Below are positions 12,275 to 28,341 of a stretch of 64,000 nucleotides of DNA, piece after piece. The notes under the pieces were generated by a model. The model was not told the DNA's origin and did not search any database. It saw only the letters and a list, made by a program, of their open reading frames with translations. The position numbers and the translations under genes were made by a program. Within the stretch, counting starts at the first letter, position 1. Each line of letters begins with the position of its first letter. Source of the stretch: a virus. Location of the stretch: the IMG/VR virus record IMGVR_UViG_3300044591_000896, positions 1 to 64,000 of that record; one strand, 5' to 3'.

Positions 12275-12481
12275 ATGACTGAAGAACAGGCAACAACAAA
12301 TCTAGAAGATAATCTTCCTATGGTGACATATATTATGCTCCATAGGATTTATGATCTGCTTACACTAATTTCGAATAAAGTGGTAGGCGGAGAAGACACA
12401 CAAAAGATGATAAATTATCATGAACAGGGCTATCTATTAGGCCCTGCCCCAGCGTATACAACAGGAGAAGAAAATGGATAA
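12275..12481 (+). CDS. Hypothetical protein
   Basis: Coupled in plus-strand operon. Confidence 0.5.
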   Translation: MTEEQATTNLEDNLPMVTYIMLHRIYDLLTLISNKVVGGEDTQKMINYHEQGYLLGPAPAYTTGEENG

Positions 12482-12668
12482 AGATAGAGACTCAGTTGTC
12501 AACTTAATGACAAGAGTTTTCCAAAACGGCAACAAAATGATGTGCATTCAATCAGGAATGTCTGAAGAAGAAACTGAAGAAAAGATGGGCCAAAGCTTGC
12601 CATCAATTACATACCTAATGGGATTAGTTTTTGACAAGCTTGATGAAAACAATCTTATTGTAGAATAA
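12474..12668 (+). CDS. Hypothetical protein
   Basis: AGGAG RBS; overlapping start. Confidence 0.5.
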   Translation: MDKDRDSVVNLMTRVFQNGNKMMCIQSGMSEEETEEKMGQSLPSITYLMGLVFDKLDENNLIVE

Positions 12669-12671
12669 TCC

Positions 12672-12700
12672 TTGACTTAGGACAAAATCTATTTTACAAT
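12672..12700 (+). promoter_or_regulatory. SigA-type promoter
   Basis: TTGACT-N17-TACAAT. Confidence 0.7.
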
Positions 12701-12706
12701 AATATT

Positions 12707-12783
12707 GTAAGTTGAGCTTTTAGTTCCTTACATGTGCTTAGGCACAACAAAACCCAGTCGGATCCGCCTCTGACTGGGTTTTG
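12707..12783 (+). ncRNA. Candidate three-hairpin small RNA ending in a terminator
   Basis: Follows promoter; no substantial ORF; stems GTAAG/CTTAC, TGTGC/GCACA, AAAACCCAGTCGGA/TCTGACTGGGTTTT. Confidence 0.5.
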
Positions 12784-12788
12784 TATTA

Positions 12789-13355
12789 TCAACTGTAACT
12801 TTTTACCAGTGTTCCTTTTTTAAAAACAAATCCTGTTATAAAATACCTAGTTCCTGATATCACATGCTTAACCGCATGAGTGTATTCTTTGTAACCAGAG
12901 TGAACAAGCATTCTTCCAGCTTTTGGTTTAATTTCGATACCTTTATTAATGTAAACTGTTTCTCCACCTTCAAAATTGTCATTAAAATAAATTATATAAC
13001 CCTTGGTAACATTAACACTACGGCCATCGCCATACTCATGATTATCTGCATGTACTCCAAGAGCCCAGTCAGTACCGTTTCCAGTAGATACACGAAGTCT
13101 GTTTATAATGGTATTGCTGTTTGACTCTTCTTCATCATTGTTAATAATAGCTTCTAGACGAGTGTTTATTTCTTGACGAAGTTCTCTAGAATGCGTACAT
13201 TCTTTTAAATTATTTTCCCACGCTCCGCCTTCGCCATACCATCCATTTTCTTCAAGGCACTCAGACATCATTACATCTATTTCTTCTTTTGATAAGAAGT
13301 CATCTATGTAGTATATTCCGTCATCAACTTTAGTTATGATGTATTTATTATCCAT
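12789..13355 (-). CDS. 2OG-Fe(II) oxygenase, prolyl 4-hydroxylase-like
   Basis: HAD...IIYFNDNFEGGE...H.V..V.SG.RY. Confidence 0.85.
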   Translation of the reverse strand: MDNKYIITKVDDGIYYIDDFLSKEEIDVMMSECLEENGWYGEGGAWENNLKECTHSRELRQEINTRLEAIINNDEEESNSNTIINRLRVSTGNGTDWALGVHADNHEYGDGRSVNVTKGYIIYFNDNFEGGETVYINKGIEIKPKAGRMLVHSGYKEYTHAVKHVISGTRYFITGFVFKKGTLVKSYS

Positions 13356-13459
13356 ATCTATATTCTATCATTTTGCAGAACATAGTGCGAAAAATAGTGC
13401 AAAAAAAGTGCTTCGGCGGCAGAAGAACCCTTTTATAAATTTAGGTGTATAATAATAAT

Positions 13460-13621
13460 ATGAGTCCAAGACATTTTTCAAAGATGATGTATGGCCCATA
13501 TTTTTTAAGTGATAATCATCCCGATTCTCATCATACAAAGATAGAGGCCAAGATAGAAGAGAATGCCAAAAAGTTTTGGCATATACTCTTAAAGCCTTTC
13601 TCTAAGTTCACCAAATCCTAA
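13460..13621 (+). CDS. Small hypothetical protein, leaderless
   Basis: TATAAT 6 nt before ATG; MSPRHFSKMM... Confidence 0.4.
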   Translation: MSPRHFSKMMYGPYFLSDNHPDSHHTKIEAKIEENAKKFWHILLKPFSKFTKS

Positions 13622-14143
13622 AGATACTCCAAAGCGGGGGGAAGAAGCAATAACATTATGCATTCTACCATTAGGACAATATAGAACATCTCCTGGACCA
13701 ATTACCTTATCAAATTCAATTTCACTATTAGTCTTATCATAGATCTGCCATCTGGAATATCCCTGAAGCTGCCAGAATATAACATTTTCATAATCTACAT
13801 GTGGTCCACCATATGCTGATGGATCTGTAGTTAAGGACATATATATCTGATGATCACTACCTTCCTCTTCAGCCAATGGAGATTCATGGAGTACCTCTAA
13901 TAAATTCTCTAAGGCTTCTCTAACGGGTTTGATCCTATGTGCCTGTCTTATCTTATACCCGCCAAATTTAAATCGCTTCTGACCATGCTTTCTGCCGTTT
14001 TTTACATCATCATCTAGAAGCATAAATACTTCATCCCATGTGACTTCTGGCATATTTAGGTCAGTGCGATGGTCTATATGTCTGTTTTGTATGTTTTGTA
14101 GCAATTTGATATCATTTTTAAAATCATACATAATTCTAGTCAA
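13589..14143 (-). CDS. JmjC/cupin-4 family oxygenase
   Basis: PHVDYENVIFWQLQG.S.W...PGDVLYCP.G..H. Confidence 0.8.
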   Translation of the reverse strand: MTRIMYDFKNDIKLLQNIQNRHIDHRTDLNMPEVTWDEVFMLLDDDVKNGRKHGQKRFKFGGYKIRQAHRIKPVREALENLLEVLHESPLAEEEGSDHQIYMSLTTDPSAYGGPHVDYENVIFWQLQGYSRWQIYDKTNSEIEFDKVIGPGDVLYCPNGRMHNVIASSPRFGVSLGFGELRERL

Positions 14144-14155
14144 CTACTTTCATAG

Positions 14156-14230
14156 TAGGAGTAGTCAGATTTGAACTGACAGTCGATTGTATATAAGACA
14201 ATTGCTTTCACCAGATTAAGCTATACTCCC
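14156..14230 (-). tRNA. tRNA-Ile(UAU)
   Basis: GGGAGTA/TACTCCT acceptor stem; ATTGT-CT-TAT-AT-ACAAT anticodon arm; GTTCAA T-loop. Confidence 0.88.
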
Positions 14231-14300
14231 GTAAATACCTGCAGCGCTAAGCCACATATATGTACGAGTATAGTTACAATTCCAACCCACAGTATTAACT

Positions 14301-14807
14301 TCATGGAGTAAACTCCAGAGAATCATCTCCATATGCAAATCCAGTAATATAGTATCTACATCCTGAAGTAACTACTTGAACCTTATGTGGGATATCTCCT
14401 CTATGAATTAGCATTGATCCCACCTTTGGTTTAAATGCTAGATCAATATCTGGATACTCAATCTTCCCGCCTTCATATTCATCATTGAGATAAATTACAA
14501 TGCCCCATTTGATTCCAACTTGATCTGGACGCTCTCCATATGCATCATCACGATGTAGATCCATTCCGCTATTGGTTTCCCATCTTTGAACTCTATAAAA
14601 CCCCGCCATTCTTTCTAAGTTTTTAAACATAGGATCAACTCTACTACGTAATTTACGAAACAATGGAGCAAAATCATTATGCTCAAAATATAGCTGCATC
14701 TCACCATCATTTTTAAGATTTCTTTTTGAAATTTCCATAAATGCTGCTATCTCACTATCTGAGATATAATTTTCAAACTCATAGATACCATCTGCAATTA
14801 AATTCAT
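14301..14807 (-). CDS. 2OG-Fe(II) oxygenase, prolyl 4-hydroxylase-like
   Basis: HRD...VIYLNDEYEGG...H.V..V.SG.RY. Confidence 0.85.
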   Translation of the reverse strand: MNLIADGIYEFENYISDSEIAAFMEISKRNLKNDGEMQLYFEHNDFAPLFRKLRSRVDPMFKNLERMAGFYRVQRWETNSGMDLHRDDAYGERPDQVGIKWGIVIYLNDEYEGGKIEYPDIDLAFKPKVGSMLIHRGDIPHKVQVVTSGCRYYITGFAYGDDSLEFTP

Positions 14808-15376
14808 TTTAAATCCCCAAATCCTAGAGAAGCACCAAACCTTGGAGTAATAGCTTCTACCTTATGTGGTCTACCATATGGACAGTAAAGAATATCACCT
14901 GGTTCTAGTATAACATCTACATCTATCAAATCATCTGAGACATTTTCTAGATCTGGATATTCCCCCGCTTTATAAATTGTCCATCTTGACTTACCTTCAA
15001 TATTCCAGAAGATCACATTCTCAGTATCCTGATGCAGCTTCCAGTATGTTCCATCTTGTGTAGTAATATTCATGTATAGATGTGTAGATCTACCCTCAAC
15101 CTCAAGTTGATAGTTTGATTCTGTGAAAATTTCTAATAATTTTTTTTGTGCATCTGCAATTCCTGGAATACGCATTGCATTTAGGATTCTGAATCCACCA
15201 TTCTCATATCGCTTTTGTCCATACAGATTTCCTGCTTTCACATCCTCATCTAAGATTCTGAATGCGTCGTCCCATTTGATCTTTGGTAACCCCGCCACAT
15301 TTTTTGCAACATGAACAGTAGCGTTGTTGAAAGCTGATCTAAACTCAGCGTCATCAAAGATATCAAAAGTTGTCAT
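14804..15376 (-). CDS. JmjC/cupin-4 family oxygenase, paralog of 13589-14143
   Basis: HQDTENVIFW...PGDILYCP.G.PH; leaderless start after TGCTATACT. Confidence 0.8.
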   Translation of the reverse strand: MTTFDIFDDAEFRSAFNNATVHVAKNVAGLPKIKWDDAFRILDEDVKAGNLYGQKRYENGGFRILNAMRIPGIADAQKKLLEIFTESNYQLEVEGRSTHLYMNITTQDGTYWKLHQDTENVIFWNIEGKSRWTIYKAGEYPDLENVSDDLIDVDVILEPGDILYCPYGRPHKVEAITPRFGASLGFGDLK

Positions 15377-15395
15377 GCCTCTAGTATAGCATTTG

Positions 15396-15411
15396 TGTTT
15401 CACGTGAAACA
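15396..15411. promoter_or_regulatory. parS: Perfect parS palindrome (ParB-binding site)
   Basis: TGTTTCACGTGAAACA. Confidence 0.85.
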
Positions 15412-15662
15412 AGTTCTAGTCAACTACTATTTCAGATTTGAGAAAATGTTAATATTTATTTTTCTTGTATGATACACACCTAAAAAAAGAACGATAAATC
15501 TTGATAGTCCGCCCATATTGTCCTCAATGTCCGATTTATACACTAAAAAAGTCGTGTGATGTGCCTCACAATGTCCGAATTGCACCTTTTTTGAGTTGAT
15601 ATTTGTCAGACCCCCGTGTTATGATTTATATATAAAGAAAAACAAACGAAAGGAGTCAAAAA

Positions 15663-16680
15663 ATGACTCAACTTACAGAAACACTATTCTCAACAATAGT
15701 TCACGACTACCATAACGGCGGAGTAAAATCCTCATATGGATTAGATAACTACACACGCAAGGAAATCCTTGCCTACCTTATCCGCTCTAAGGGTTGCGAG
15801 TGCATAAACTGTCTGTGATAGACATCACACGCAATAGCCTTGCAAATGTCATACTTATTTGATACCTTTATCTTATTGAACTACTAAAGAAAGAAGAAAC
15901 AAATGTCATACTCATTCGATACTAATACAGCCTCTAAGTGGGATACCATTCAAGAAGATGTTGCCGATATGTACCTAGAAGATGTCGAAGAAACAGAAGA
16001 AGAAGATTTCTTCGGTTTCTCTAAGTCTATCGAAACAGACCACTTAACAGATGAACAGATTGACACACTACTAACTACTATCGATTGGAACTAATCTAAT
16101 GACTATCACTTACTCAATTTGGCAAGGCTCTCGCTTACTATCTATCGACAATGTAGCGCATGAGGTTAAGGCTATTGACCACCTAATAGATTCGCTTAAC
16201 GATAGCGACCTAGGCAAGAAAACAAAATTCACCGCTAACATTCAAAACATAAAGGTAGGGGCTAACTAATGACTATTGAACTAGATAACTATGGTTTCAT
16301 GCTAGATACAGAATGGTGCTATGTTGCACTATCATGGCAACTACTAATCACCACCGCCCTACTAGTAACCGCTTACAAGATTTACAAGAGAAAGAAGAAT
16401 AAGTAATGAGAAAATGCAAGATAGATGTATGCGATTCCACCGAATTAGTTTATAGCGGTGTAGATGCTTTCCTATTGGGTGTTCCTACAGAAACCTATTG
16501 CTATGAATGTTCTAACAATGGAGATGCACATAGAGAATTGCTAGAGGTTTCTAACTAATGAATAGACTATTAACTACTATCGTTCAACTATCTATTGCTA
16601 TCCCCGCCCTATACATGATGAGGATCGTGTATCATGATTTCAAGGCGGAGATGCGTGAGATGTGGCAAGAATCACACTAG
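15663..16680 (+). other. Run of short early ORFs (15663-15818, 15903-16094, 16099-16269, 16269-16406, 16406-16558, 16558-16680)
   Basis: TAATG-coupled ORFs with AAGGAG/AAAGAAG RBSs; functions unknown. Confidence 0.65.
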
Positions 16681-16934
16681 CCTAACGGCGTGTCGGCTTG
16701 ACATTGTCAAGCTGGCCCGCAAAGGCGCGGGGTCGGGCGTGTCGTTATGAACATGTTATAAAATCCCCTGAAATTTACGGCGTGTCGATTTGACAGACAA
16801 AACGGACATATTGGTGTGATGCTTATCACATGCGTTGAGCGTCTTACTATATGGACTTACTGGCTAGTAATGTCATAAATGTCAGTCCCATCTGGTACAA
16901 TACTCTTATAACAACAACGAAAGAAGGTCAATTC

Positions 16935-18006
16935 ATGAACCTAGATGAATTCCGTGCCCATGTAGAGGCAACCCGTCAAGCAAGCAAGGCAGAAGCCTTG
17001 TCAGTGCTATCTGCTACAATGTCCGTATCAACAACAACGAAAGAAGGTCGCTAATGTCAGCGAATGTCTATAATGTCGAAAGCCTCTTAGTAGGTAAAAT
17101 GTATTACTCTAATTCAGTAAAGGGCGAGATTATCTCAGCCGAAAAAAATGATGATGTATGGTACTCAGGTGCAGATACATACAAGGTGCAAATTCGCCCT
17201 GTAAATTCTTTTGATTTCAAGGACACATACCGCTATGTAGCGGTGAAGGTTGGTGAATAAATGATAGATGTAATTGACTCAACCGAATTTTATTCGGTAC
17301 TAGATGAATCACACTTCTGCTGTGATGAAATGCAATTCCGTTATGTATGCAAGGCGCATGATGAATACATGGGTTGCTACTTTTGCGAATTTGATTACAA
17401 CAAAGAATGTGAGTGTGAATAATGGGATACATTGAGATTTTTAGAATGGATCAAAATGGTGCAGGTTGGGTAGATTTATCTGACGCTACCCCTGATGAAC
17501 TATTTACTATTGAGGTAGGGCTACTTAATGAGGGAGCCTTATTCCATACCCCCGAATCTGACTAATTTGTCAGACCCCTCTGCTACAATACTCTAACAAC
17601 CACGAAAGGGAAAACCTATGTACCAAATCTCTGTTTCATACGATAGCAAGCCTATCCATTTCAATAAAAACTATGTAGACGCTTTAGAGGCTTTTACCGA
17701 ATTCAACAAATTTGTTGATTGGGGTTGGGCTAATGAATACTCAACTGTAAATCTACAAATGCCAACTGGCAAAATGTATACACGCACATTTTATCGTGAA
17801 GGACGAAAGGTCGTAACAAAATGATGACACGCAAAGACTATGTAGCAACCGCAGAAATTCTAAAGTATGCAAGCGATAAAGCGCACCCCGCTTTATTTTC
17901 TAAAATGGTAAATGATTTTGCGGAAATGTTTGCAAAAGATAATCCGCGTTTTGATGTTGTGAGATTTCACGAAGCAAGCAATTACAAAGTAAAGGTAGGC
18001 AAATAA
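16935..18006 (+). other. Run of short early ORFs (16935-17054, 17054-17260, 17261-17422, 17422-17565, 17618-17824, 17821-18006)
   Basis: Translationally coupled ORFs with GAAGG/GAAAGG RBSs. Confidence 0.65.
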
Positions 18007-18360
18007 ATGCAAATCGTTGAAATGTTTGTGTGTTCAGATTGTGAAGATTTCGGTGCAGTTTATATTGAAGGGAATGTGTTAAGTGTTAAAAGATGTGAAT
18101 GTATTGCAGAAGATTAAACGAATTCAAGAATTGCGAAGATCAAATGCAGCAACCGCAATTCCTTCAAAGAAAAAATATTCACGAAAGCGCAAGCATAAAA
18201 ATTCAGAGTATTGAATATTTATGCGGCCCGCAATCTTTTGTGGGGGGCAAGTGTGAATTACGACACATTTTAAAAATCGCCTGAATTTTGCGGCGTGTCG
18301 ATTATGATATGTCAGTGGCCCATGGTATTATTCTCTTAAATCTAACGAAAGGTCCAACTC

Positions 18361-18570
18361 ATGGAACTATTTACTGTTGCTTGCTTGAACTATGAAATTT
18401 GTGGCGATATGGCTACCTTTGATTCTGATTCAGAATATGAAATCTATGGCGATGATTATATCTGCGCTGAATGCTATGCGTCTGAGGAAATGGAATTCTT
18501 TGAAACTATAGGCTGGGCAGATTCAGACGCATTAGCGTCTGCAGGCCATGGAATGGATGAGGATTACTAA
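18361..18570 (+). CDS. Small acidic Cys-containing protein
   Basis: GAAAGG RBS downstream of promoter at 18310. Confidence 0.55.
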   Translation: MELFTVACLNYEICGDMATFDSDSEYEIYGDDYICAECYASEEMEFFETIGWADSDALASAGHGMDEDY

Positions 18571-18601
18571 TATGTCAGATCTAACCGCTATAATTACCCC
18601 T

Positions 18602-19321
18602 ATGAAACTTAAACGGTCCAACGATAGAAAGGTGGCTAACCTTGTCACAAAAAATGGAAAGCAAGCAGCAATTGCTAACACATTCGGATTACCTGCAGGA
18701 AAAGACTATTCATGTCCTGGCGCTACGTCTATCTGCGAAAGTGTTTGCTACGCTGGCAAATTGGAAAAGCTCTTCCCTGGTGTAAAAACTAATCTTCTCC
18801 ACAATTGGGAGCTCTTACGCAATGCAGACATGGACACAATGCTCATTCTATTAGATGAGATGATTGTTGAATTTATTGCTGATTGTGAAAAGAAAGACGC
18901 TCCTAAATTATTCCGTATCCACTGGGACGGTGATTTTTTCAATGATACATATACATATGCGTGGAAAGTAATTATTACTAATCATCCTGATATTCAATTT
19001 TGGGTTTATACTCGTGTAAAGTCTGCAGCGCTTATTCTTAAGGATGTTGCTAACCTATCTCTTTATTATTCCACCGACGATGATAATAAAGAAATTGGTC
19101 ATGAGTTAAAAGTAAATGAAGGTATTCGCCTTGCATATCTTGGGAAGACTTTTGCCGTAACTGAGGGCACCATGAAAGAATTGACTGGCAAGCCTGGCGC
19201 TAAATGTCCTGAGAATATGAAAAGCATTCCACTTATTAGCAATGCAGGCTCTGCATGCGTGTCATGCGGTCTCTGCGTATATGGTAAAGCGGATGTTAGA
19301 TTTTCTGCGAGTAAAAAATGA
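18602..19321 (+). CDS. Phage Gp88-like (radical-SAM-related) protein
   Basis: CPGATSICESVCYA, FRIHWDGDFF, FWVYTR, C-terminal CxxCxxC; leaderless start after promoter 18573. Confidence 0.75.
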   Translation: MKLKRSNDRKVANLVTKNGKQAAIANTFGLPAGKDYSCPGATSICESVCYAGKLEKLFPGVKTNLLHNWELLRNADMDTMLILLDEMIVEFIADCEKKDAPKLFRIHWDGDFFNDTYTYAWKVIITNHPDIQFWVYTRVKSAALILKDVANLSLYYSTDDDNKEIGHELKVNEGIRLAYLGKTFAVTEGTMKELTGKPGAKCPENMKSIPLISNAGSACVSCGLCVYGKADVRFSASKK

Positions 19322-19602
19322 CGGATATACTAGGGGCAATTATTGGAGTCGGGATCTTAATCGGATTACTGGTCCCGCTTCCAATAATTATTTATACAAT
19401 ATTTAAACAATAGCGGCGTGTCAGCTTGACAAGATCAAGCTGGCCCGCAATGTTGCGGGGTTATCCACAGGGTTACGGGAGTTATCCACAATCCCTTGAA
19501 ATTGTGATTAATCTCACAAAAGCTGCGACACGCCGTAAATGGATTAGGTAATGTCAGTGGCATAGTGTAAAATACTCTTATCAACCAAACGAAAGGCAAC
19601 AA

Positions 19603-19827
19603 ATGTCAAATGTAATCCGTGTTCCACACACAGTAGTATTCGAGGCTATTATTAACCTTGATACTATTCCTGCAAACCTACTACCTGCGCTAATTGCGCT
19701 TGATGAAGCAACAATGACTCAAATGTGCAAAGAAGCAACACTACACGCACTTGCTATGTCTAATGTATTACCACTTGCAAATGAAAATAATACTTGGGCT
19801 GAAGTAACTATCAAGGGAGATAACTAA
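19603..19827 (+). CDS. Hypothetical protein
   Basis: GAAAGG RBS after promoter 19552. Confidence 0.6.
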   Translation: MSNVIRVPHTVVFEAIINLDTIPANLLPALIALDEATMTQMCKEATLHALAMSNVLPLANENNTWAEVTIKGDN

Positions 19828-19829
19828 TA

Positions 19830-20096
19830 ATGGGATACACAACAGCATTAGCATTAGAAGAAGAATTGTCTTTAGAGGCAGGACTTGCTTATCACTTGCA
19901 GGGTAATCATTACCCACCCGTTCCCGTCTCAATGGTGCAACCTTGCATAGACGCTATTGATGCGTTCTATGATGAGGATTTTGATCGTGAGATTAATTTA
20001 CCTGAAGGTATCTCTTGGCGAGGTAAAACTTCAGCACCCGCATCTGCCATAATTGATGCTCACCACTTAGACCCGTGGCTACCTGAGTGTGATTAA
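19830..20096 (+). CDS. Hypothetical phage protein
   Basis: HLQGNHYPPVP motif; GGGAG RBS. Confidence 0.6.
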   Translation: MGYTTALALEEELSLEAGLAYHLQGNHYPPVPVSMVQPCIDAIDAFYDEDFDREINLPEGISWRGKTSAPASAIIDAHHLDPWLPECD

Positions 20097-20191
20097 CCTC
20101 ACACAATAATTTTCTCAAATACTGAGATAGGGCTAGACAAATGTCAGACCCCAATGTTATACTACCTACCTAACAAAGAAAAGAGGCAAAA

Positions 20192-20368
20192 ATGACAATC
20201 AACGACAAGTTGTATCAGGTTGGCGATTTATTCACCACCCTAAAGTCAAAGAAAACAGGTGTGATTAAGGAAATCCACCCACAGGCATCTGGCTCGGTGC
20301 GTGTGTTGCTAGAAATGCCAAACAAGGAAACTCGCTGGACTTCGGTATCAGCAAGCACTTTGGCATAA
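20192..20368 (+). CDS. Small SH3/KOW-like hypothetical protein
   Basis: AGAGG RBS; YQVGDL...TGVIKEI; not in ORF track. Confidence 0.55.
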   Translation: MTINDKLYQVGDLFTTLKSKKTGVIKEIHPQASGSVRVLLEMPNKETRWTSVSASTLA

Positions 20369-20509
20369 AACTAAATAATCGAAACAGGGGCAGTTTAAGA
20401 GAGTGTTCTCGCCCAATGTCGTAAGTAAGAACTCTCTCCCTTCGGGGAAATGTCAGACCCCCCTGCTATACTATCCACTAACAACAACCCACCAACGAAA
20501 GGTAACACA

Positions 20510-20926
20510 ATGTCAAGAGCAATCACAGTAAAGGTGGCAACACCTAAAGTAATCAAGGCTTTGGAAACAAAGTTAGCAACAATCAAGAAGGACTATGCAG
20601 AGCAAGGTGCAAACGAGGCTAAGTATGAAAAGGCTCGTAAGGCTTGGCAGAAAGAACTTCAGGATTATGCAATCGCAAACATCAAGAAGTCAGAGAACCT
20701 TCGCACAAACTATCGTTCTTGGAATAACACACTCAACATTGACTTTGATTTGACAGTATCCGAAAAGGATTTGCCAAAAGAGCCTGAGCGTGATTTTACA
20801 GTTATGCACCAACACTCATACAATGAAATTGTAGAGGACATTACAAATGCTCTCACAATTCTAAAGATGACAGATGAGGAAACAGTAAATGCTTCTACAA
20901 TGAAGCAAATTGCTCGTTATCTCTAA
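20510..20926 (+). CDS. Hypothetical coiled-coil protein
   Basis: GAAAGG RBS; start reassigned downstream of promoter 20451. Confidence 0.65.
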   Translation: MSRAITVKVATPKVIKALETKLATIKKDYAEQGANEAKYEKARKAWQKELQDYAIANIKKSENLRTNYRSWNNTLNIDFDLTVSEKDLPKEPERDFTVMHQHSYNEIVEDITNALTILKMTDEETVNASTMKQIARYL

Positions 20927-20963
20927 ATAATTTGGGGGGCAGAACTAAAGTCCTGAACCCAAA

Positions 20964-20990
20964 CGACCTGAGTAAGTCGCCAAACTGCTC
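20964..20990 (+). ncRNA. Mini H-type pseudoknot motif, copy 1
   Basis: CGAC-CTGAGTAA-GTCG-CC-AAAC-TGCTC. Confidence 0.5.
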
Positions 20991-21025
20991 TCCCTTATGG
21001 GACAACTACTAACAAAGGTAATACA

Positions 21026-21286
21026 ATGGCAAATCGTTTTAGAGTTGAAATCTATGACGCAAACAAAATGAATGACATCACAATCTATTCAGATCAAGGT
21101 GTTGATAAAGAATACTTAACTGAATTAGTATTCAGCAACATCAGAAACTTTAGCGGAAGAGTTAATGCTTATGTTTTTGATAATGTAAAAAAGAAAAAGA
21201 CAACTGCATTATTTTTTGATGAGAAGACAGTTGAAAAAGTTAATTCAATTACACGTGGCTTAAAGAAAATGGAGTTGGGGTTATAA
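21026..21286 (+). CDS. Hypothetical protein
   Basis: AAAGG RBS. Confidence 0.6.
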   Translation: MANRFRVEIYDANKMNDITIYSDQGVDKEYLTELVFSNIRNFSGRVNAYVFDNVKKKKTTALFFDEKTVEKVNSITRGLKKMELGL

Positions 21287-21467
21287 ACCCCAGCTTCGCC
21301 CGCAATATTGCGGGGTTATCCACAGGTTTACGACTGCTTGTGGAAAACGCCTGAATTTTTGTGAGATTACTCACATGGATCAAATCGGACAAATGACTAA
21401 CTAATCTAGACAATGTCAGTGCCACCTGTTATAATTGCTTAATCAACCAATCGAAAGGAATAAATCC

Positions 21468-22472
21468 ATGGCTCATAATCTAGAAATGGAAAATGGCGAA
21501 GTTGCATTTGCACTTCGTGGCGCACCTGCTTGGCATAATCTTGCCAATCGTATTTTCTCACAAGATGAGGAAGTAACTACACAATCTATGCTTGAAGAAG
21601 CAAAGTTATCAAATTGGAATGTTCGTCTATCTCCAATCACTGAGCACATTCCAGAATCTTGGAATGATGTATCTACTGCATCTCTTGTCATTCGTGATAA
21701 TCCATTCAATGGCGGAACTGATGTTCTTGCTACTGTTGGTAAGCGTTACAAGCCTGTGCAGAATGAAGAATTGTTTGCATTTGCTGATGCAATTCACGAT
21801 GCCAATGCTGATTGCCGTTGGGAATCTGCTGGCTCACTAAAGAAGGGCAAAGTTGTATTCGGTACTGTGGATATTCCTCGTACAATGGTTCTTGACCCAC
21901 AAGGTGCTAACGATGAAACTAAACTCTATCTAATTGTTTGGACATCACACGATGGTTCTGTTGCGGTGCAGGCTGCCGTTACTCCTGTTCGTGTTGTATG
22001 CCAAAACACTCTCAACCTTGCAATGAAAAGCGCAAAGCAATCTTTCAAGATTCGCCACACGCAATCTGTTGAAGGTCGCATTCAAGTTGCTCGTGAAACT
22101 CTTGGGCTTGCTCTTGGATACTTTGATGAATTCGAAAAAGAGGCTCAATCTCTTTACACTCAGGCAATTACTGATGCTGAATTCTCTAAGTTGATTCAGA
22201 CAATCTATCCAAAGCCTGAAAAGGATTCTAAGGGTGCGCTAAAGAAGTGGGAAAATAAGGTTGTTCTACTTGATGACCTTTATCATAACTCACCAACTAA
22301 CGCTACAATCAAGGGAACAAAGTGGGGCGCATTCAATGCACTTACTGAGCGACTTGATTACTATCGTTCAGGTCGTGGTAATTCTGAATCACTAATGGCT
22401 GGTGCATCAGGATTTGACCCTGTACTAACCGCAGAGAAAAATAAAATTCTCAAGTTAGTAAAATCATTTTAA
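21468..22472 (+). CDS. DUF932 family phage/plasmid protein
   Basis: AWH.L, PVQNEE.F.F, SHDGS, TPVRVVCQNTL, GT.WG..NA.TE..D. Confidence 0.85.
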   Translation: MAHNLEMENGEVAFALRGAPAWHNLANRIFSQDEEVTTQSMLEEAKLSNWNVRLSPITEHIPESWNDVSTASLVIRDNPFNGGTDVLATVGKRYKPVQNEELFAFADAIHDANADCRWESAGSLKKGKVVFGTVDIPRTMVLDPQGANDETKLYLIVWTSHDGSVAVQAAVTPVRVVCQNTLNLAMKSAKQSFKIRHTQSVEGRIQVARETLGLALGYFDEFEKEAQSLYTQAITDAEFSKLIQTIYPKPEKDSKGALKKWENKVVLLDDLYHNSPTNATIKGTKWGAFNALTERLDYYRSGRGNSESLMAGASGFDPVLTAEKNKILKLVKSF

Positions 22473-22480
22473 CTAAATGA

Positions 22481-22512
22481 TTAACGGGGGAGAGAAATCT
22501 CCCCCGTTTTAT
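22481..22512 (+). terminator. Intrinsic terminator
   Basis: AACGGGGGAGA-GAAA-TCTCCCCCGTTTT. Confidence 0.75.
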
Positions 22513-22514
22513 TT

Positions 22515-22588
22515 GGTTCGTTAGCTTAGTTGGATAAAGCGCTACCCTGTCACGGTAGAGATCACGGGTTCAAGTCCCGTACGAATCG
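22515..22588 (+). tRNA. tRNA-Asp(GUC)
   Basis: GGTTCGT/ACGAATC acceptor; CTACC-CT-GTC-AC-GGTAG; GGTTCAAGTCC. Confidence 0.92.
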
Positions 22589-22746
22589 CAATAAATATTT
22601 ATGCACATTCATGCATAATTATTCGCCCGCAATGTTAAGGGAAAATTTGTTGTGTTACGGATCACATAAAAAAAGCCCTGAAAACTATAGACAAATGTCA
22701 GTGGGGTCCTGTACAATACTCCTATATAACAACGAGAGAGGTAAAT

Positions 22747-23172
22747 ATGTCAAATAGAACTAAAGGATATACTGGAACAATTGTTGACGGCAAGAAGCTT
22801 GCTGAAATTGCAAACGGTATTTATAATCTACAGTATAGCTCAGACTTTTCTGAGTGCACAGTAGATAATCTATTGTTCATTGAACTAGAAGAGAAGAATG
22901 TTTTTGGTGATCCAAAATATGCTCTTGTATGCTCAGAAGGTGTTGGTTGGGAACAAGATACATATGGTTGCTTGGAAGTCCCTACTAATATTGGACAAAT
23001 GGGCCTATGGAATGGACGTGTATTTATCTCAGTAGATACTGTTAAGTCTTGCCTTACTGATAAGACTGAGGATATATCAGATTACATTAGAGTCTTTGGC
23101 TCCCGCCTTGATTCTAACTGTTCCCTATGGCAATCCAAAATGTCAGTGGCCTCTGGTACACTAGCGATATGA
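22747..23172 (+). CDS. Hypothetical protein
   Basis: GAGAGG RBS after promoter 22696. Confidence 0.6.
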   Translation: MSNRTKGYTGTIVDGKKLAEIANGIYNLQYSSDFSECTVDNLLFIELEEKNVFGDPKYALVCSEGVGWEQDTYGCLEVPTNIGQMGLWNGRVFISVDTVKSCLTDKTEDISDYIRVFGSRLDSNCSLWQSKMSVASGTLAI

Positions 23173-23831
23173 CCAACGAACTCATATCAAGTAAGTATAC
23201 ATTTGTCTGTGACCCAGATGAATGCGACTCATTAATTGAATTAACATCCTCAGACGGATTTGGATTCCCGTCTGGTGTGATGGAACTCACATGTCCATGT
23301 GGCCGTAAGACTACCTTATTGTCAGTGGAGCATGCTACAATTGCACCTTCAAACCAAACGAAAGAGGAAACCATGGAAACAACAATTGGCTCAGATGCAT
23401 TCCACTCACCTGCAGTAGAATACAATCCTGATTTACTAGTTACATATAAAGTAATCAAGGGTTACTCTGACCCTGAATTCACAACATCAAAGGTTACCAG
23501 TCTTGAGTGGGACCTACACAATGGACGACAATCACAAAAGCGTGTTGGTCTTCTTGAATCTAACATTAACACAGTTAAAGATATTATTACTGAAGTTTAT
23601 TCAGACTCAGATGACCAAGATACACTTCGTTCAATCGCTGAAGCGCTTGGCATTGAATTAACTCGAACAGTTGAATTCACTGCAACCATTGAGGTTAGTG
23701 GAACAATTGACCTTAACTTACTTGAAGACTATGACTTCGAAACAGAAATCACAGATAATCTTTATGTTGATTCACAGAGTGGCAACATTGAGATTGGCGA
23801 TACTGAAATCTGTTATGTGAGGGAAGCATAA
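23169..23831 (+). CDS. Hypothetical protein with N-terminal Zn-ribbon and probable internal start at 23373
   Basis: Leaderless start after promoter 23141; internal promoter 23320 plus AGAGGA RBS. Confidence 0.55.
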   Translation: MTNELISSKYTFVCDPDECDSLIELTSSDGFGFPSGVMELTCPCGRKTTLLSVEHATIAPSNQTKEETMETTIGSDAFHSPAVEYNPDLLVTYKVIKGYSDPEFTTSKVTSLEWDLHNGRQSQKRVGLLESNINTVKDIITEVYSDSDDQDTLRSIAEALGIELTRTVEFTATIEVSGTIDLNLLEDYDFETEITDNLYVDSQSGNIEIGDTEICYVREA

Positions 23832-24780
23832 TGTATTTTGAACTTACTGCTCCATCTCAGGTAGCCTTTGCACGGGCTACCTGGGAAGCGGAGTTGATTG
23901 GGTTGGACCCAATGACAATTGCACCATTGACTTTCAATATCGGAACTGGTAGTATTGAGAAGGTAAGTCGTATTCGTGATAAGTATAATCTAATAGAATC
24001 ATACACATCAGACTACGAGCCAACAGGATACACAGGGAGATAATATGTCAGACTACAGAGATGGCTTTGATGACGGTTACAAATTTGGTCGTGAAGAACT
24101 AATTGAAAAACTAAGAGAGATTGATATCTCAGATATCGATTCTTGGTTAGTTGATAAGTTAGCAGACATGATCGAAGGTAACGAGATATGAGTTGGATTG
24201 CATGCGATAAGTGTGGAGATTCAGCCCAAGCTAAATGGATAATTAAATTAGTTGAAGGCGAACTATACTTCTGTGGTCACCATAAAAATAAATATGAGGC
24301 GGGCCTTGCCAAGGTCTCATATGAAATGATAGAATTAGACAAGGTCGAAGAAGTACTACTACTAGAAGAGGCGGAAATATAATGGGAGATAGAGCAAACT
24401 TCGGATTTAGACAGAGCAATGGCGATGTTATTGTTTTGTACGGTCACTGGGCTGGACATGAGATGCTAGCACAATTAGCAAGCGCTGTTGATGCGGCACG
24501 TCCTCGCTGGACCGATGAGGGATATGCAACACGTATTGCTATTTCTCAACTCGTGGGCCAAGACTGGGAGTCGACAACTGGTTGGGGAATTTATATTAAT
24601 ACAATTCCTGACAATGAGCACAAGATTCCTGTAATCGATTGGCGCAGTGGGACCTTTAGTCTTCATGAGGAAGCATCCTATGATGAAAGCACAAAGGTCC
24701 ATGGCATGTCAGATGAACCAATGTTTTCACAAACACTGGATGCATTTGTAAATAAATATTCCTTGGTGCTTTCTAAGTAA
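23831..24780 (+). other. Coupled early ORFs (23831-24043, 24045-24191, 24188-24382, 24382-24780)
   Basis: Overlapping start/stop codons; 24188 ORF has CxxC...FCGHH zinc motif. Confidence 0.65.
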
Positions 24781-25078
24781 CACGGAACCATATGGTGCCT
24801 CTATCAGTCATTAAATGGCCAGGGGTTAAATAAAGCAGAGTTCTTTTACTTTCGTTGGTGATACTCTAGCAGCCTATATAATAGCTTGACAAATCATGAT
24901 CTGGCCCGCAAAAACATAAGGGTAACATATTTTGTTTACGAGGTCAATTTAAAATCGCCTGAAATTCTGTGATCTTGACCACATGCATACAAAATGTGGT
25001 GTGGAACACACCCAAATAGTATTCCATTTGTCAGTGGTCCAGTGTATAATTCTCATATATCAAACGAAAGGATATAAT

Positions 25079-25852
25079 ATGCCAAACTGGGTATATAACA
25101 CATTGACTATTCAAGGACCTAAATCTGAGGTAGATATGATTAAAGATAGATTGAATGCTCCATTTACATTAGCACAGGAGACATTTGGTATGGGTGATAT
25201 TTCTTCTATGGGTTTCCCCACCAAAATTAAATTAGTTGAATATAATAATCCTGTCTTTGCTTTCTATAATATCCACTCATATAAGGATGACGGCATTACT
25301 GATGAGGAATATGCCTGCCAGCCTACACGTTCAGGTGCAGATATCAAAGACCCTAATTGGTTTGCACAAGAAGTAGCACATGCCAAGACTCAAAAAGATT
25401 GGTACTCATGGAACAATACTAACTGGGGCACCAAATGGGATGTAGCCGTATCAGATGATGACAAATATCCAAACACAGAATTACTTGAATATAAATCAGA
25501 GGGTGATGACAACTGGGTTGTCTATAAGTATGAAACTGCTTGGTCACCTGCTGTAACCATTCTAACTAAACTAAGTAATCTTGTTCCTAACTGCCTACTT
25601 ACTTTGGAGTATGAAGAGGAGACAGGTTGGGGTGGAGAATATGAGATTGTCCGTGGTGATGTTAAAACTATTCTAGAATATGAGAATCGTTGCTATGCTT
25701 GCCAATCTTTTGATACATTATCTTATTGTGAAGATGACTGCGGTGAATTCTGCTCTGAATGTAACCAAGGTTCTTGGCAAGATGAAGAGGCTATGAAAGA
25801 ATGTCAGACCCACATGGTACTATTAGAAACTACAGAAAAGGTGAAAGCATAA
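25079..25852 (+). CDS. DUF1281/YubB ferredoxin-like domain protein
   Basis: MPNW..N.L.I.G, WY.W...NWGTKWD, ETAWSP. Confidence 0.8.
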   Translation: MPNWVYNTLTIQGPKSEVDMIKDRLNAPFTLAQETFGMGDISSMGFPTKIKLVEYNNPVFAFYNIHSYKDDGITDEEYACQPTRSGADIKDPNWFAQEVAHAKTQKDWYSWNNTNWGTKWDVAVSDDDKYPNTELLEYKSEGDDNWVVYKYETAWSPAVTILTKLSNLVPNCLLTLEYEEETGWGGEYEIVRGDVKTILEYENRCYACQSFDTLSYCEDDCGEFCSECNQGSWQDEEAMKECQTHMVLLETTEKVKA

Positions 25853-27098
25853 TGGAAGCATTTACAGATACAGTTGGAGAACATATCCTTGGAGCAATTC
25901 AAGTAGATATTGAGCAACATCTATTTGAGCAATGGAATAGCAAAAACTTAGATGAAGGTAGCGATTATGCTGAATATATGTTCATGCAATTTGCTCCTGA
26001 TAGCCTAAAGCAATCATACAATGAGTATTATGGCTATATTGAGGGAGATGAGTTTCTACTATGATGTTAGGATACACATTAAACGATTTAGATGAAATGA
26101 GGGCTGTTGTTACTAAGGCTCTATATGATTCTAAGGGACTGCCGACTGAAAAAGGATTAGAAAAAACAGCAGACTTTTTAGACGGGCTTTGGTCGGAGGG
26201 CTACTTTGACTAGATCATCACACTTCCTAGAATATATAAAGCTTCATTTAATTAGTCTTATCCAGGACTTAGATAACTTACATTCAACTGATGATAACTT
26301 TAAATTTGTTGAAGGACAAATTGAGGCAACCAGGCATTTATTGTCAGTGGCTACTGATATAATGAACTCTTCTAACGAAAGGTATAACAATGAATAATGA
26401 AGACATTGGGCTCCCGCCCCATTTACAGCGCATGGTCAACGCAGGTGTATCAGGCCTTGACATCATGCATGGAGAACTAAAAAACCTAATGCTTATTGCC
26501 GAGCAAGAACTTGCAGAGGCCCAAGCAATTGAGGATGAGTCAGAAGAAGCAATGGACTCTATGGACCGCACACGTTGTGAAGGTGCCCTTGATACATTAG
26601 TGTCTTTATATGATTTAACATATCAACTATCATTTGCGATTGGAGCACGTAATGAAGCCTGAAGATAAAGACAAACTAAATGAATGTTTAAAGATTCTAG
26701 ATAGCACTGACCTTGGTCTGTCCCTGGTTTGGCTATGGACCTGGTCCACAATCAACAACATCTTTGAGGATGAAAGTTACAAGCAGAAGGTTACTATCGA
26801 TCAAATGTGGGACAACCTCTGTGAGGCTGTGGAGGCTGGAATGGGCTTCTCACTGGAGTACGGGGCGGAACAGCACCAAGAAGATGTCCTTGAATGGATG
26901 TTAAATCGTGAATACATTGTAGACACAATGTTTGAAGAAGAGGAAGAAGACGAAGATGAAGATGACTGATGAATACATCAATGATCAATTAAATACAGCA
27001 CAAAAGCTTTTGTGGGGTGGGTCAGAAACAGAAAACATTGAGGCCCATAACATCATTGCTAGATTAATTAAAGATAGAGTTGAACAGACCAATTTAGT
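25852..27098 (+). other. Coupled acidic early ORFs (25852-26064, 26206-26397, 26390-26662, 26652-26969 and short neighbours)
   Basis: Tightly packed plus-strand ORFs; functions unknown. Confidence 0.6.
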
Positions 27099-27194
27099 AT
27101 AAGGGCAAGAAAAAAGGCTTACGGTGACTATTTACAAATCCGTGAAAAGTTGCTATAATTAATACAAATCAATTATCTCGAAAGGATAAATCAA

Positions 27195-27344
27195 ATGACA
27201 ACAAAGCGTGAATATCTAAAGCAGCAGGGCATTACAGTTGGAGCACGAGGACGTTTCTCAGGAGCAGCCAAGGTAGCTTTGCAAGAGGCAGTACAGAAGG
27301 GCATTACCTTCACTGCAGAAAAGCCTGTATCAAAGGCTAAGTAA
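27195..27344 (+). CDS. Lsr2-like DNA-binding mini-protein (49 aa)
   Basis: GAAAGGA RBS; KREYLKQQGITVGARGRFS resembles the Lsr2 C-terminal RGR AT-hook domain; not in ORF track. Confidence 0.65.
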   Translation: MTTKREYLKQQGITVGARGRFSGAAKVALQEAVQKGITFTAEKPVSKAK

Positions 27345-27436
27345 CTAACTGTGGGGCTGGCAATAGCGGTGGGATCCGTGGGCATTGCCAGCCTCGCTTC
27401 ATTTTGGTATAATGTAAGATTGACGAGAGGCGGACT

Positions 27437-27853
27437 ATGAGCAAGACACCAACAGACAAAGTAATGGAATCATTAGTTAATCTAATTGAGCAAGCATACT
27501 TCAATCCTGCACAGGTAGGTCGTTATCTATCTGAGCAACCATACTACACAACTGACCGCACAATGGAAATGATTACTGAAATCATTACACATATTGCAAG
27601 ACGGGCACAGCAAGAACAAGTTGCTGGTAAAACATCAGACGGTCTCTATCTAGCAACTGAGTTAGCCTATGCCTTAGAAGCAATTAAAGAAACATATCAA
27701 TTCAAGACTCTCAAACTACCTAGAACTCTATCTGAGATATCGGCGGGGCTACCAAAAGTAGAACTAAAAGATATAAATAGGAACTACAGATATTCCTGGT
27801 TAGATAATAACAATGAACCAGAATCAGTTAGAATTGAACACCCGTTCTTCTAG
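27437..27853 (+). CDS. Hypothetical protein
   Basis: TTGCCA-N17-TATAAT promoter and GAGAGG RBS. Confidence 0.6.
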   Translation: MSKTPTDKVMESLVNLIEQAYFNPAQVGRYLSEQPYYTTDRTMEMITEIITHIARRAQQEQVAGKTSDGLYLATELAYALEAIKETYQFKTLKLPRTLSEISAGLPKVELKDINRNYRYSWLDNNNEPESVRIEHPFF

Positions 27854-27872
27854 CCAATGTTCCACAAATTAG

Positions 27873-27902
27873 ATCCACATCCACAGGGTGTGGATTTTTT
27901 TT
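27873..27902 (+). terminator. Intrinsic terminator ending the plus-strand block
   Basis: ATCCACAT...GTGTGGAT followed by T run. Confidence 0.65.
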
Positions 27903-28341
27903 GTGATCAAAATGTGTGGGCTTGTGGGCAAAAATTCCCTTTTACGACGAGCTAAAAAATACGCCTGAAATTGTATATAAATGTCGACAAATCTATATAG
28001 AATCATATAACTATTTAAACAAATGTGTGCAGAATTAGCCAAAATCTGTCAAAATTTTTCCATGAAATCTATTGACAATGTGGGCAAAATATGCCTTTTA
28101 CGAGGGCATTGACAAAATCCCTGAAATTTGCATGCATATACAAATGTCGACAAAATGATTGACATTACGGCATCTATATGATAGGGCATGTCCCATTACA
28201 TGTATATCTAAATACATATATATCTGTAGTAATTGTCGACTTATCTATAACCATATTACTCCACAATACTCCACTTTACTCCACATATAAAGCCTCTAGG
28301 AGGCTGATAGAGAGGAGATAATTGGGAGGGGGATATAGGAG

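Follow-up and report, generated by a model that had tools for sequence, protein, structure and literature searches.

PafBC-type promoters and ordered host-type regulatory words in a probable early gene block of an uncultured lake actinophage

PafBC-dependent (RecA-NDp) promoters of mycobacteria and other Actinobacteria are read by sigma adaptation (PMC8635444, PMC11804915), and their motif, tGTCgg(N10)tA(N3)T, combines a -26 element with a -10 element without a -35 element (PMC8635444). In the T4 middle promoters (MotA box plus AsiA, sigma appropriation), as cited in the same paper, an upstream box substitutes for the -35 contact (PMC8635444). Two further site types with described counterparts concern us here: the CRP palindrome, whose consensus is conserved across phyla (PMC10187061), and the WhiA/WhiB2 motif of Mtb, given by ChIP/IDAP as GACACGCC / CGACACGCCGn, with WhiA also occupying the recA promoter in that species (PMC13473873). 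Among phages, the BE1 members of Streptomyces cluster BE (Stanwilliamsviridae) carry a terminal repeat of ~11 kb (PMC5764925). No report of a phage using the PafBC promoter class was found in open-licence PubMed Central papers and bioRxiv preprints.

We analysed a window of 64,000 nucleotides from an uncultured lake phage of actinobacterial hosts with a genome of 115,479 bp (IMGVR_UViG_3300044591_000896). Its own WhiB gene, together with a terminase and a polymerase that share 56–64% identity with those of Streptomyces cluster BE phages, marks it as an actinophage. The sole cellular lead to a host, a WhiB match in an Aquiluna MAG, turned out to lie on the contig of a related phage. The ~13-kb block at 15.4–28.3 kb is the sole sizeable plus-strand region in the genome and holds ~45 tiny genes, the majority of them orphans without a family match; it would be the early small-gene region of the phage, probably pre-early. 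An earlier note on this DNA had described the block as packed with binding sites for host proteins, and whole-genome counts and shuffle controls bear this out: the sites in 15396–28340 lie far above chance, the candidate words are essentially confined to the block across the 115,479-bp record, and both the words and their order are kept in 80 relatives. These enrichments, the sequences and geometry behind them and their conservation are direct observations, and the features are listed in Table 1.

Table 1. Features of the block and of the phage WhiB gene, with positions counted from the first base of the window.
Feature	Position	Strand	Details
parS	15396-15411		perfect 16-bp palindrome (16/16); divergent junction
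First cassette	15555-15625	+	CRP palindrome 15555-15570; PafBC-type promoter 15604-15625
Leader downstream of 15604 promoter		+	shared leader AACGAAAGG, then ATG at 15663
Cassette A	16686-16901	+	WhiA words 16686, 16735, 16778; hairpin; GCCCGCAA 16715; frame TTATGA-N16-CCTGAAA 16745-16773; CRP box 16815-16830; promoter 16880-16901
Promoters 16999 and 17568	16999-17589	+	TGTCAG site 17055 doubtful
Cassette B	18226-18331	+	GCCCGCAA 18226; frame 18258-18286, its centre a 9/10 CRP-like palindrome (18252); WhiA word 18291-18300, 8-mer core GGCGTGTC (18292) 18 nt before promoter; promoter 18310-18331
GP88-family gene	18548-19321	+	PF17338, phrog_1392
Cassette C	19414-19573	+	WhiA-like word 19414; hairpin; GCCCGCAA 19443; DnaA boxes 19461, 19482; TTACGG 19473; CTTGAAA 19495; CRP box 19503-19518; reversed WhiA word CGACACGCCG 19526-19535; promoter 19552-19573
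CRP box	20088-20103	+	with promoter 20142-20163
Further promoter	20451-20472	+	
Cassette D	21298-21435	+	GCCCGCAA 21298; DnaA box 21316; TTACGA 21328; inverted DnaA-like box TGTGGAAAA 21339; CCTGAAT; CRP box 21360-21375; promoter 21414-21435
DUF932 gene	21468-22472	+	phrog_1221
tRNA-Asp	22515-22589	+	behind strong terminator 22483-22508
Cassette E	22625-22717	+	GCCCGCAA 22625; frame 22655-22683, centred on a 9/10 CRP-like palindrome (22651); promoter 22696-22717
Intragenic sites	23141-23341	+	promoters 23141, 23320; CRP box 23276-23291
Cassette F	24904-25050	+	GCCCGCAA 24904; frame 24936-24964; 9/10 CRP box 24968-24983; promoter 25029-25050
Promoters 25802 and 26342	25802-26363	+	
Canonical -35/-10 promoters	27131-27159, 27385-27413	+	
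Lsr2-type single-module gene	27195-27344	+	49 aa; driven by canonical promoter
Orphan gene	27437-27853	+	138 aa; driven by canonical promoter; 15 homologs only; poor fold model
Non-coding block end	27871-28341	+	terminator hairpin 27871-27897; three TACTCCAC repeats
Block-end frame copies	27942-27970, 28098-28126	+	TGTCGAC after each
WhiB gene	43335-43730		

The motif TGTCAG-N10-TAnnnT occurs 18 times in the window against 1.0 expected in the shuffle control, always on the plus strand, and 17 of these sites fall in the block (15604-26363), which carries ~16 promoters (16–17 sites) per copy, each site with a leader and then a gene downstream. In the 80 relatives, 1096 such sites follow the gene strand and 2 run the other way. 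TGTCAG is invariant in the promoter logo and the -35 zone contains only 0–0.4 bit, with a fair -35 (e.g. TAGACA, TTGATA) at four promoters, by chance or design. Of 27 Actinomycetia, 24 have this geometry in front of recA, and TGTC[AG]G promoters precede recA, radA, rmuC and an exonuclease gene in low-GC or small actinobacteria. The proposal that these are PafBC-type promoters agrees with the sequence: in the block promoters the core, the spacing and the four bases that follow all fit the PafBC consensus, from the TGTC(R)G element at -26 through N10 to the TAnnnT -10 without a -35, and positions 7–10 read W-S-S-C both in the phage and in 24 host recA promoters. They differ at position 5, which is A in 16/16 phage sites whereas it is G in 19/24 host recA sites, in the TGn extended -10 (12/16 phage sites versus 0/24 host sites), in number, and in having no LexA box. 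Because of the position 5 and TGn differences, the phage promoters may fire without PafBC. WYL genes were present in 7/7 small or low-GC actinobacterial genomes tested, as an adjacent, pafBC-like pair ~1 kb apart in 5/7. Among the phage proteins searched, no WYL, Crp-HTH or sigma region 2 protein was found, and a sigma region 4-like match was sub-threshold only.

All seven perfect TGTGA-N6-TCACA palindromes of the genome lie inside 15396-28340, against 0.8 expected there by length and 0.13 in the shuffled window, and 472 perfect sites were counted in the 80 relatives. In the relatives, the distance from CRP box to promoter follows a 10-bp ladder of 34/44/54/64 bp (counts 3/33/29/29 across 118 downstream-gene groups), with a minority of boxes at 49 bp, half a turn off the main ladder. 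Assuming a start 7 nt after the -10, the site centres would fall at about -54.5, -64.5, -74.5 and -84.5. Perfect palindromes stepping upstream in helical phase with the promoter are what class I CRP promoters (E. coli paradigm) display, which is consistent with the earlier designation as CRP boxes, although here the partner promoter is of PafBC type, the series is offset by ~3 bp from that of E. coli, and the half-turn minority is an addition. Genomes of the candidate host type carry a Crp-family gene. We rejected a reading of these palindromes as Rex operators because their spacers lack A....T ends.

The GGCGTGTC/GACACGCC word is likewise restricted to 15396-28340 (6/6 whole-genome copies). 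The 8-mer GGCGTGTC was found six times in the window against 0.31 expected by shuffling, always at 16.7–19.5 kb, and four of the six are full 10-mers. What had been called a GACAC box is real but is a short form of a 10-11-nt word, ACGGCGTGTCG, with CGACACGCCG as the full WhiA/WhiB2 ChIP word; the phage word is identical to the Mtb ChIP/IDAP motif. In 22 of 24 actinobacterial recA regions the same word stands 14–18 nt upstream of the SOS box, and in the relatives of the phage it precedes TGTCAG at a fixed 25–26 or 17–18 nt. WhiA/WhiB-activated promoters (Streptomyces sepX, PMC10243135; Mtb regulon, PMC13473873) share with the phage both the extended WhiA motif, CGACACGCCG(T), and its place just upstream of the promoter, and the phage has a WhiB; in the phage, however, the candidate word is found in both orientations next to a PafBC-type promoter that has no -35, and again ~100–145 bp upstream.

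The "novel spaced repeat" of the earlier note proved to be real and to be a rigid three-word DNA frame of which GCCCGCAA is the first word. The frame runs from GCCCGCAA/GGG to TTACGR to CCTGRAA, and DnaA-type boxes often fill its two slots. All six genomic copies of GCCCGCAA are inside 15396-28340; TTACGR-N15/16-CYTGRAA was found five times in the window versus 0.00 expected by shuffling, or eight times with the last base relaxed, and a further count gave 349 copies on the gene strand versus one on the opposite strand, with spacings of 15/16 and 30 nt. GCCCGCAA is frequently the left arm of a hairpin (z-scores of the hairpins: -2.2 in cassette A, -3.5 in cassette C); an RNA reading of the repeat was rejected in favour of the rigid DNA frame. 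The DnaA boxes reported earlier are also present, three perfect and one variant, but in this genome the perfect boxes are confined to cassettes C and D. Three of the four genomic copies of TTATCCACA are inside 15396-28340, and TTATCCACA clusters (4+2 boxes) at oriC of a 1.49-Mb low-GC actinobacterium and in none of three high-GC genomes tested. In 10 of 24 genomes, T[AG]TCCACA boxes were also found at -31 and -59 relative to the -26 element of recA, so a similar word is part of recA promoters as well and the binder of the phage boxes is ambiguous.

The order reported for these elements, GCCCGCAA followed by a CRP box and a TGTCAG promoter, holds at all three loci quoted for it (cassettes C, D and F) and is the median order in 828 distinct promoter contexts from the 80 relatives. 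Cassette D is kept in 60 distinct relatives, even with a different upstream gene, though the orientation of its second DnaA box flips among them. Judged by its words, the cassette is built like an elaborated recA control region of the host, minus the LexA operator. The parS at the head of the block is a real site and the only match in the genome with up to two mismatches, but it marks a subclade only: 5 of the 80 relatives have it (each time upstream of the first promoter), and no ParB gene was found in the phage. The suggestion that the cassettes integrate cAMP, replication, division and damage signals is supported insofar as the words match experimental actinobacterial sites and are conserved; parS/ParB input is not supported as a general feature.

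By sequence, the block has its homologue in the terminal-repeat region of the cluster BE phages of Streptomyces. Counterparts of three block genes stand at the end of BE genomes, and two of these fall within the 11-kb repeat: the GP88-family and DUF932 genes, which lie in the same order inside that repeat in Peebs and Karimac (two copies per record). Peebs, Karimac and BillNye (the last with a repeat of only ~2.3 kb) have the GP88-family homolog (49–51% identity) in their terminal region; in BE1/BE2 phages of Streptomyces, the DUF932 homolog is the second or third gene of the terminal repeat; and the Lsr2-type module, also terminal, completes the shared order. Further likenesses are the strand switch, the array of tiny genes with a promoter and a terminator for every gene, and TTACGA-N15/16-CCWGGA frames in terminal non-coding DNA; in Peebs and Karimac, frames similar to those of the block end (TTACGA-N15/16-CCAGGA) occur within the terminal 700 bp. 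BE phages differ in that the cultured ones have normal -35/-10 promoters, with TGTC in some only, and in that the repeat, examined in Peebs only, has no perfect CRP or TTATCCACA boxes. Contigs of five to seven relatives tend to stop at the equivalent of 28.1–28.5 kb, clustering near 28.3 kb, and the genome probably ends physically in the non-coding block end. A 55-bp overlap closes the assembly, and the assemblies of five relatives hold one block copy each. Homology supports the idea that the block is a terminal repeat, which in the phage itself is putative. The first-step-transfer terminal repeat of T5 likewise carries pre-early genes, repeats and DnaA boxes; no homology of this phage to T5 was found.

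We hold it somewhat better than an even chance that these are early promoters read by host PafBC and tuned by host CRP, WhiA/WhiB and a DnaA-box binder. Host RNA polymerase with the housekeeping sigma would read the block promoters through the activator PafBC, itself switched on by single-stranded DNA, with TGTCAG taking the place of the -26 element ten bases upstream of the TAnnnT -10 and TGn present in most. The cassettes would offer, in fixed order, the WhiA/WhiB word, the three-word frame and the CRP palindrome on one helix face relative to the promoter, where cAMP-CRP (class-I-like), WhiA with its WhiB partner and the DnaA-box binder would most likely tune each promoter; every protein–DNA contact and the timing of expression we infer from these arrangements. 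An early programme awaiting a single-stranded DNA signal is unusual, which counts against this reading, as do the promoter differences at position 5 and in TGn, the CRP boxes at 49 bp and the ordinary promoters of the cultured BE phages. TGTCAG could instead be the box of a phage-encoded or virion-delivered activator replacing the -35 contact, like MotA/AsiA, making the block a middle class, or an early class needing an injected protein, and the PafBC likeness a matter of convergence or competition. Since the majority of block genes are orphans, an unrecognised regulator could hide among them, the two canonical promoters near the putative genome end could express it first, and the constant A at position 5 departs from most host sites. 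We nevertheless consider this unlikely: the domain searches of the phage yielded only the sub-threshold sigma region 4-like match, the geometry and four flanking bases are those of host PafBC promoters, and one phage factor cannot explain three more cassette words that match other host regulators. T4, moreover, relies on phage proteins, whereas the box in this phage copies the site of a host activator.

The block might also be mainly a decoy array, as the earlier note offered, titrating PafBC, CRP, WhiA and DnaA with promoter control secondary. Its seven perfect CRP palindromes in 13 kb compare with 0–3 per whole actinobacterial genome of 1.4–2.2 Mb, and the many PafBC-type sites, the consensus grade of all sites and the missing LexA box would suit a sink whose effect would be strongest after genome replication and if every genome carries the block twice; the host damage response, cAMP control, division and replication initiation would then be blunted. 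Yet the 10-bp CRP ladder and the fixed WhiA distances would be superfluous for a pure sink and favour promoter-coupled control, the word order is fixed, and a leader and gene follow every PafBC-type site, so that a pure decoy is improbable and titration is possible as a side effect. Most doubtful is that sigmaA alone reads constitutive extended -10 promoters, TGTCAG and the upstream words serving as operators at which a phage repressor or negative-acting host proteins would later shut them off. The frequent TGn and the four fair -35 elements fit this, and the phage WhiB could interfere at sigma region 4, but a repressor site would hardly account for an invariant 6-mer that stands exactly at the PafBC position and has flanks like those of PafBC sites, and a search for a repressor candidate found none.

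With host-type words ordered and phased before the promoters, the first genes of this phage are probably tied to the state of the host through these regulator-like sites. Since single-stranded DNA would activate PafBC, events that generate it, for example damage or a nuclease acting on the incoming DNA, would fire the first genes of the phage.

The plus-strand small-gene region at 15.4-28.3 kb (the block) had been described in an earlier note as packed with host binding sites, and whole-genome counts place these words there, in numbers above those of shuffle controls. All seven perfect CRP palindromes (TGTGA-N6-TCACA) in the genome, all six copies of GCCCGCAA, all six of GGCGTGTC and three of the four TTATCCACA boxes fall inside the block. 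Measured against dinucleotide shuffles of the window, the PafBC-type promoter pattern TGTCAG-N10-TAnnnT was found 18 times where 1.0 was expected, every site on the plus strand, the CRP palindrome seven times (0.13 expected), GGCGTGTC six times (0.31 expected), and a rigid spaced frame, TTACGR-N15/16-CYTGRAA, five times (0.00 expected), or eight times with one base relaxed. The word order that the note quoted before the promoters is true at all three of its loci.

The cassettes formed by these words are conserved in related phages. A DUF932 protein query returned 288 loci in IMG/VR, of which we fetched 80 (1.33 Mb); loci of unpublished genomes (G030, G032, G036) were excluded from every count. 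The 80 loci hold 1096 gene-strand versus 2 opposite-strand copies of the promoter pattern, 472 CRP palindromes and 409 TTATCCACA boxes, and k-mer enrichment over 828 distinct promoter contexts revealed a single median order (see table). Before the DUF932 gene, the cassette alignment persists among relatives even where the upstream gene is unrelated, and the second DnaA box is found in both orientations. The proposed parS site held up in part: it is perfect in this phage, but it is present in only 5 of the 80 relatives, and no ParB was found in the phage. Karimac, a Streptomyces phage of cluster BE2, encodes a protein with a ParB N-terminal domain inside its terminal repeat (6790-7143), and this gene may relate to the sporadic parS of the lake phages.

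Median positions of cassette words in 828 promoter contexts of relatives, and positions of features in the phage genome
Feature	Position	Reference or remark
ACGGCGTGTCG	~-144	median vs TGTCAG
GCCCGCAA	-125	median vs TGTCAG
GGGGTTATCCACAGG	-100	median vs TGTCAG
CCCTGAAA	-65	median vs TGTCAG
CRP box	-56	median vs TGTCAG
CGACACGCC	-26	median vs TGTCAG
TGTCAG	0	reference point
Second plus-strand gene group	11954-12668	window
ORF resembling Peebs gp24	12275-12481	
Hairpin-motif stretch	20369-20450	z = -0.2
Hairpin-motif stretch	20927-21025	z = -1.0
Strongest terminator, tRNA-Asp	22483-22589	window
-35/-10 promoter	27131-27159	near-consensus
Lsr2-type ORF	27195-27344	49 aa
TGTCGAC	27982, 28143, 28235	
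TACTCCAC	28255-28290	three copies
Phage WhiB gene	43335-43730	
CCTTTCG	89467	minus strand

Alignment of 16 block promoters showed an invariant TGTCAG, a TGn extension and TAyAAT, with no information in the -35 zone and a common downstream leader, AACGAAAGG, followed by ATG. The PafBC motif from ChIP-seq is tGTCgg(N10)tA(N3)T, in which a -26 element stands in for the -35 by "sigma adaptation" (PMC8635444), and PafBC is activated by ssDNA (PMC11804915). Of 27 Actinomycetia genomes sampled (unpublished genomes excluded), 24 have this geometry 5' of recA, and the four bases past the core are W-S-S-C in the phage and host recA sets alike. In a complete 1.49-Mb actinobacterium of ~46% GC, promoters of this kind stand before recA, radA and an imuA-like gene, and a LexA box often accompanies them; in a second actinobacterial genome, of 1.9 Mb, they stand before an RNase T-type exonuclease gene, rmuC and a clgR-like gene. 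Each of the seven small or low-GC genomes tested has WYL-domain genes, and five have them as adjacent pafBC-like pairs; the phage yielded no WYL protein, Crp-type HTH or sigma region 2. Unlike in host sites, position 5 of the phage core is always A, and the extended -10 occurs at 12 of 16 phage sites versus 0 of 24 host sites, so it is possible that the block promoters could fire partly without PafBC.

The -26 TGTC was rejected as an ancestral trait of BE phages, since Peebs has six copies, Karimac one and BillNye none. An anti-leader small RNA was rejected, since the plus strand lacks any exact complement to the leader (CCTTTCG); the minus strand has one copy, in the tape-measure region. Near the block end, TGTCGAC occurs three times, the first copy with PafBC-like geometry, directed toward the block end and with no gene after it; a triplet of TACTCCAC also lies there. 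Two intergenic stretches share the hairpin motif ...CTCTCCCTT(C/A)(G/T)GGG... before a promoter or gene start, and neither is better folded than its shuffles.

Taken as a whole, the phage cassette resembles a recA control region that has been elaborated and lacks LexA. The "GACAC box" of the earlier note is the repeated word ACGGCGTGTCG, whose complement, CGACACGCCGT, is the published Mycobacterium tuberculosis WhiA/WhiB2 motif, given as GACACGCC from ChIP-seq and IDAP-seq and as CGACACGCCGn in an earlier data set (PMC13473873). WhiA binds the recA promoter in M. tuberculosis (PMC13473873), and GACAC 5' of the -35 is read by WhiA while WhiB bridges to sigma region 4 (PMC10243135). In 22 of 24 recA regions (Actinomycetia, unpublished genomes excluded), the WhiA word, CGGCGTGTCG, is found 14-18 nt 5' of the LexA SOS box; as a testable side result for host biology, the word would thus accompany this recA box almost universally. 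In phage relatives the WhiA word precedes TGTCAG by 25-26 nt in reverse orientation and by 17-18 nt in forward orientation, or it stands farther upstream; no LexA boxes were found in the phage. T[AG]TCCACA is placed at ~-31 and ~-59 from the recA PafBC -26 element in 10 of 24 genomes, over a background of 0.16 per kb, and a further testable side result is that TCCACAG boxes are part of recA P1 regions. Together, the WhiA word and these boxes look like conserved recA promoter architecture. The binder at the phage DnaA-type boxes is ambiguous because a related word belongs to recA regions. At the origin of the low-GC 1.49-Mb genome, TTATCCACA forms four boxes in 140 bp plus two across the start. 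The three high-GC genomes tested have none and presumably use another DnaA-box variant.

The spaced frame is directional in relatives, where TTAYGR-N15/16-CYTGRAA has 349 gene-strand copies versus one on the opposite strand; GCCCSC stands 30 (±2) nt 5' of it in half of the copies, and a DnaA box occupies each frame slot in ~29%. We rejected a conserved RNA (RNAalifold gave 0 pairs over 60 diverse copies) and a hairpin (29 palindromes around TTACG versus 23.2 with permuted arms). A similar element with the frame geometry, TTACGA-N15/16-CCWGGA, is found in both Peebs and Karimac, within 700 bp of terminal non-coding DNA.

The earlier note left two uses for these sites: a cassette through which host regulators control the promoters, or a decoy array that serves as a sink for them. 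Distances from the CRP box start to TGTCAG form a ladder in the relatives. Counting every one of 118 downstream-gene groups a single time gives 3, 33, 29 and 29 cases at 34, 44, 54 and 64 bp, and minor classes at 49 bp (12) and 53 bp (14). Spacing shifts between orthologous cassettes are 10 or 22 bp, and the window has spacings of 44, 49, 49, 54, 54 and 65. Helical phasing is needed by a promoter-coupled regulator and not by a pure sink, so promoter control is better supported than the decoy array. Perfect CRP palindromes number 0-3 per whole actinobacterial genome of 1.4-2.2 Mb, and the genomes tested encode a Crp-family protein. A Rex operator reading of the boxes was rejected because the spacers lack A....T ends. 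The PafBC, WhiA and CRP assignments are predictions from exact matches to published motifs and from genome comparisons.

The IMG/VR record, of which the window is the first 64 kb, is 115,479 bp (GC ~38%) and closes on a 55-bp overlap of its ends, indicating a circular assembly. Its large terminase (60-64% identity) and DnaE-like polymerase (56-58%) resemble those of Streptomyces cluster BE phages (Stanwilliamsviridae). The WhiB family is confined to Actinobacteria, so the phage WhiB gene identifies this as an actinophage of a low-GC host. A near-identity search among cultured phages gave no match, most proteins of the block fall into no Pfam or PHROG family, and a 138-aa protein behind a canonical promoter gave a fold model with pLDDT 56. 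An Rfam search matched only tRNA; a tRNA-Asp lies mid-block, directly after the region's strongest terminator. A lookup of RNR in a protein atlas returned viral clusters only and no host lead. A host search through WhiB had a single match, in an Aquiluna MAG, on a contig that turned out to be part of a related phage. This contig (G001:C2; 57 kb, GC 40%), binned in the 'Aquiluna' MAG, is syntenic with the phage at 25-61% amino-acid identity and encodes WhiB and a RecA-like gene; its place in the bin may hint weakly at the host or else be an artefact of binning.

On a simple gene map the block is the sole sizeable plus-strand region, the remainder being minus strand save a few short ORFs. A second, small plus-strand group includes an ORF with weak resemblance to Peebs gp24, the first gene past the Peebs terminal repeat. 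BE1 phage repeats are ~11 kb (PMC5764925), and we calculated 11,072 bp for Peebs. Two genes of the block, the GP88-family gene and the DUF932 gene, have ~50% identical homologs inside the Peebs and Karimac repeats, which share their order and, with respect to the remaining genome, their orientation; BillNye differs in having a repeat of only ~2.3 kb, with the GP88 homolog just outside. A 49-aa ORF is a single Lsr2-type RGR module, predicted to bind DNA, like the Lsr2-like genes of BE termini; those genes carry homologous modules in repeated form, and the ORF here follows a near-consensus promoter. In 5-7 relatives, contigs stop at positions equivalent to 28.14-28.46 kb, and one 16.6-kb relative contig corresponds to 11,692-28,338. 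These homologies and contig ends place a physical genome end probably near 28.3 kb. A long repeat was not borne out in assembled relatives, as five near-complete genomes carry the block once each, although a single copy is expected if assemblers collapse the repeat. In almost every intergenic gap of the Peebs repeat, a terminator hairpin is followed by the near-palindrome TGTCGGGCCCGGACA with CGGACAT words and then a TTGnnn-N17/18-TAGACT promoter, a cassette analogous to that of the lake phage, yet different.

We tentatively propose a fuller scheme, which we regard as rather unlikely as a whole: the block would be the first-entering terminal repeat, its promoters strictly PafBC-dependent. Phage DNA entry or nuclease processing would raise the host ssDNA alarm, which through PafBC would act as the ignition key for the pre-early programme. 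A putative architectural protein would dock on the three-word frame and gather CRP, WhiA/WhiB and a DnaA-box binder there, and the resulting enhancer-like complex would be a copy of the one at the recA control region of the host.

PafBC sigma adaptation was described only in 2021, and if the scheme is true, this would be its first demonstrated use by a phage. It would also clearly exemplify a virus whose first promoters are assembled from the sites of several host master regulators at once. The cassettes are small, naturally occurring parts with which the joint action of PafBC, CRP and WhiA/WhiB at a single promoter can be studied. With 288 related loci in IMG/VR, phages of this group abound in lakes, and the scheme, if true, would tie DNA damage, cAMP and cell-cycle state into early phage decisions, coupling them to host state in globally important freshwater actinobacteria.
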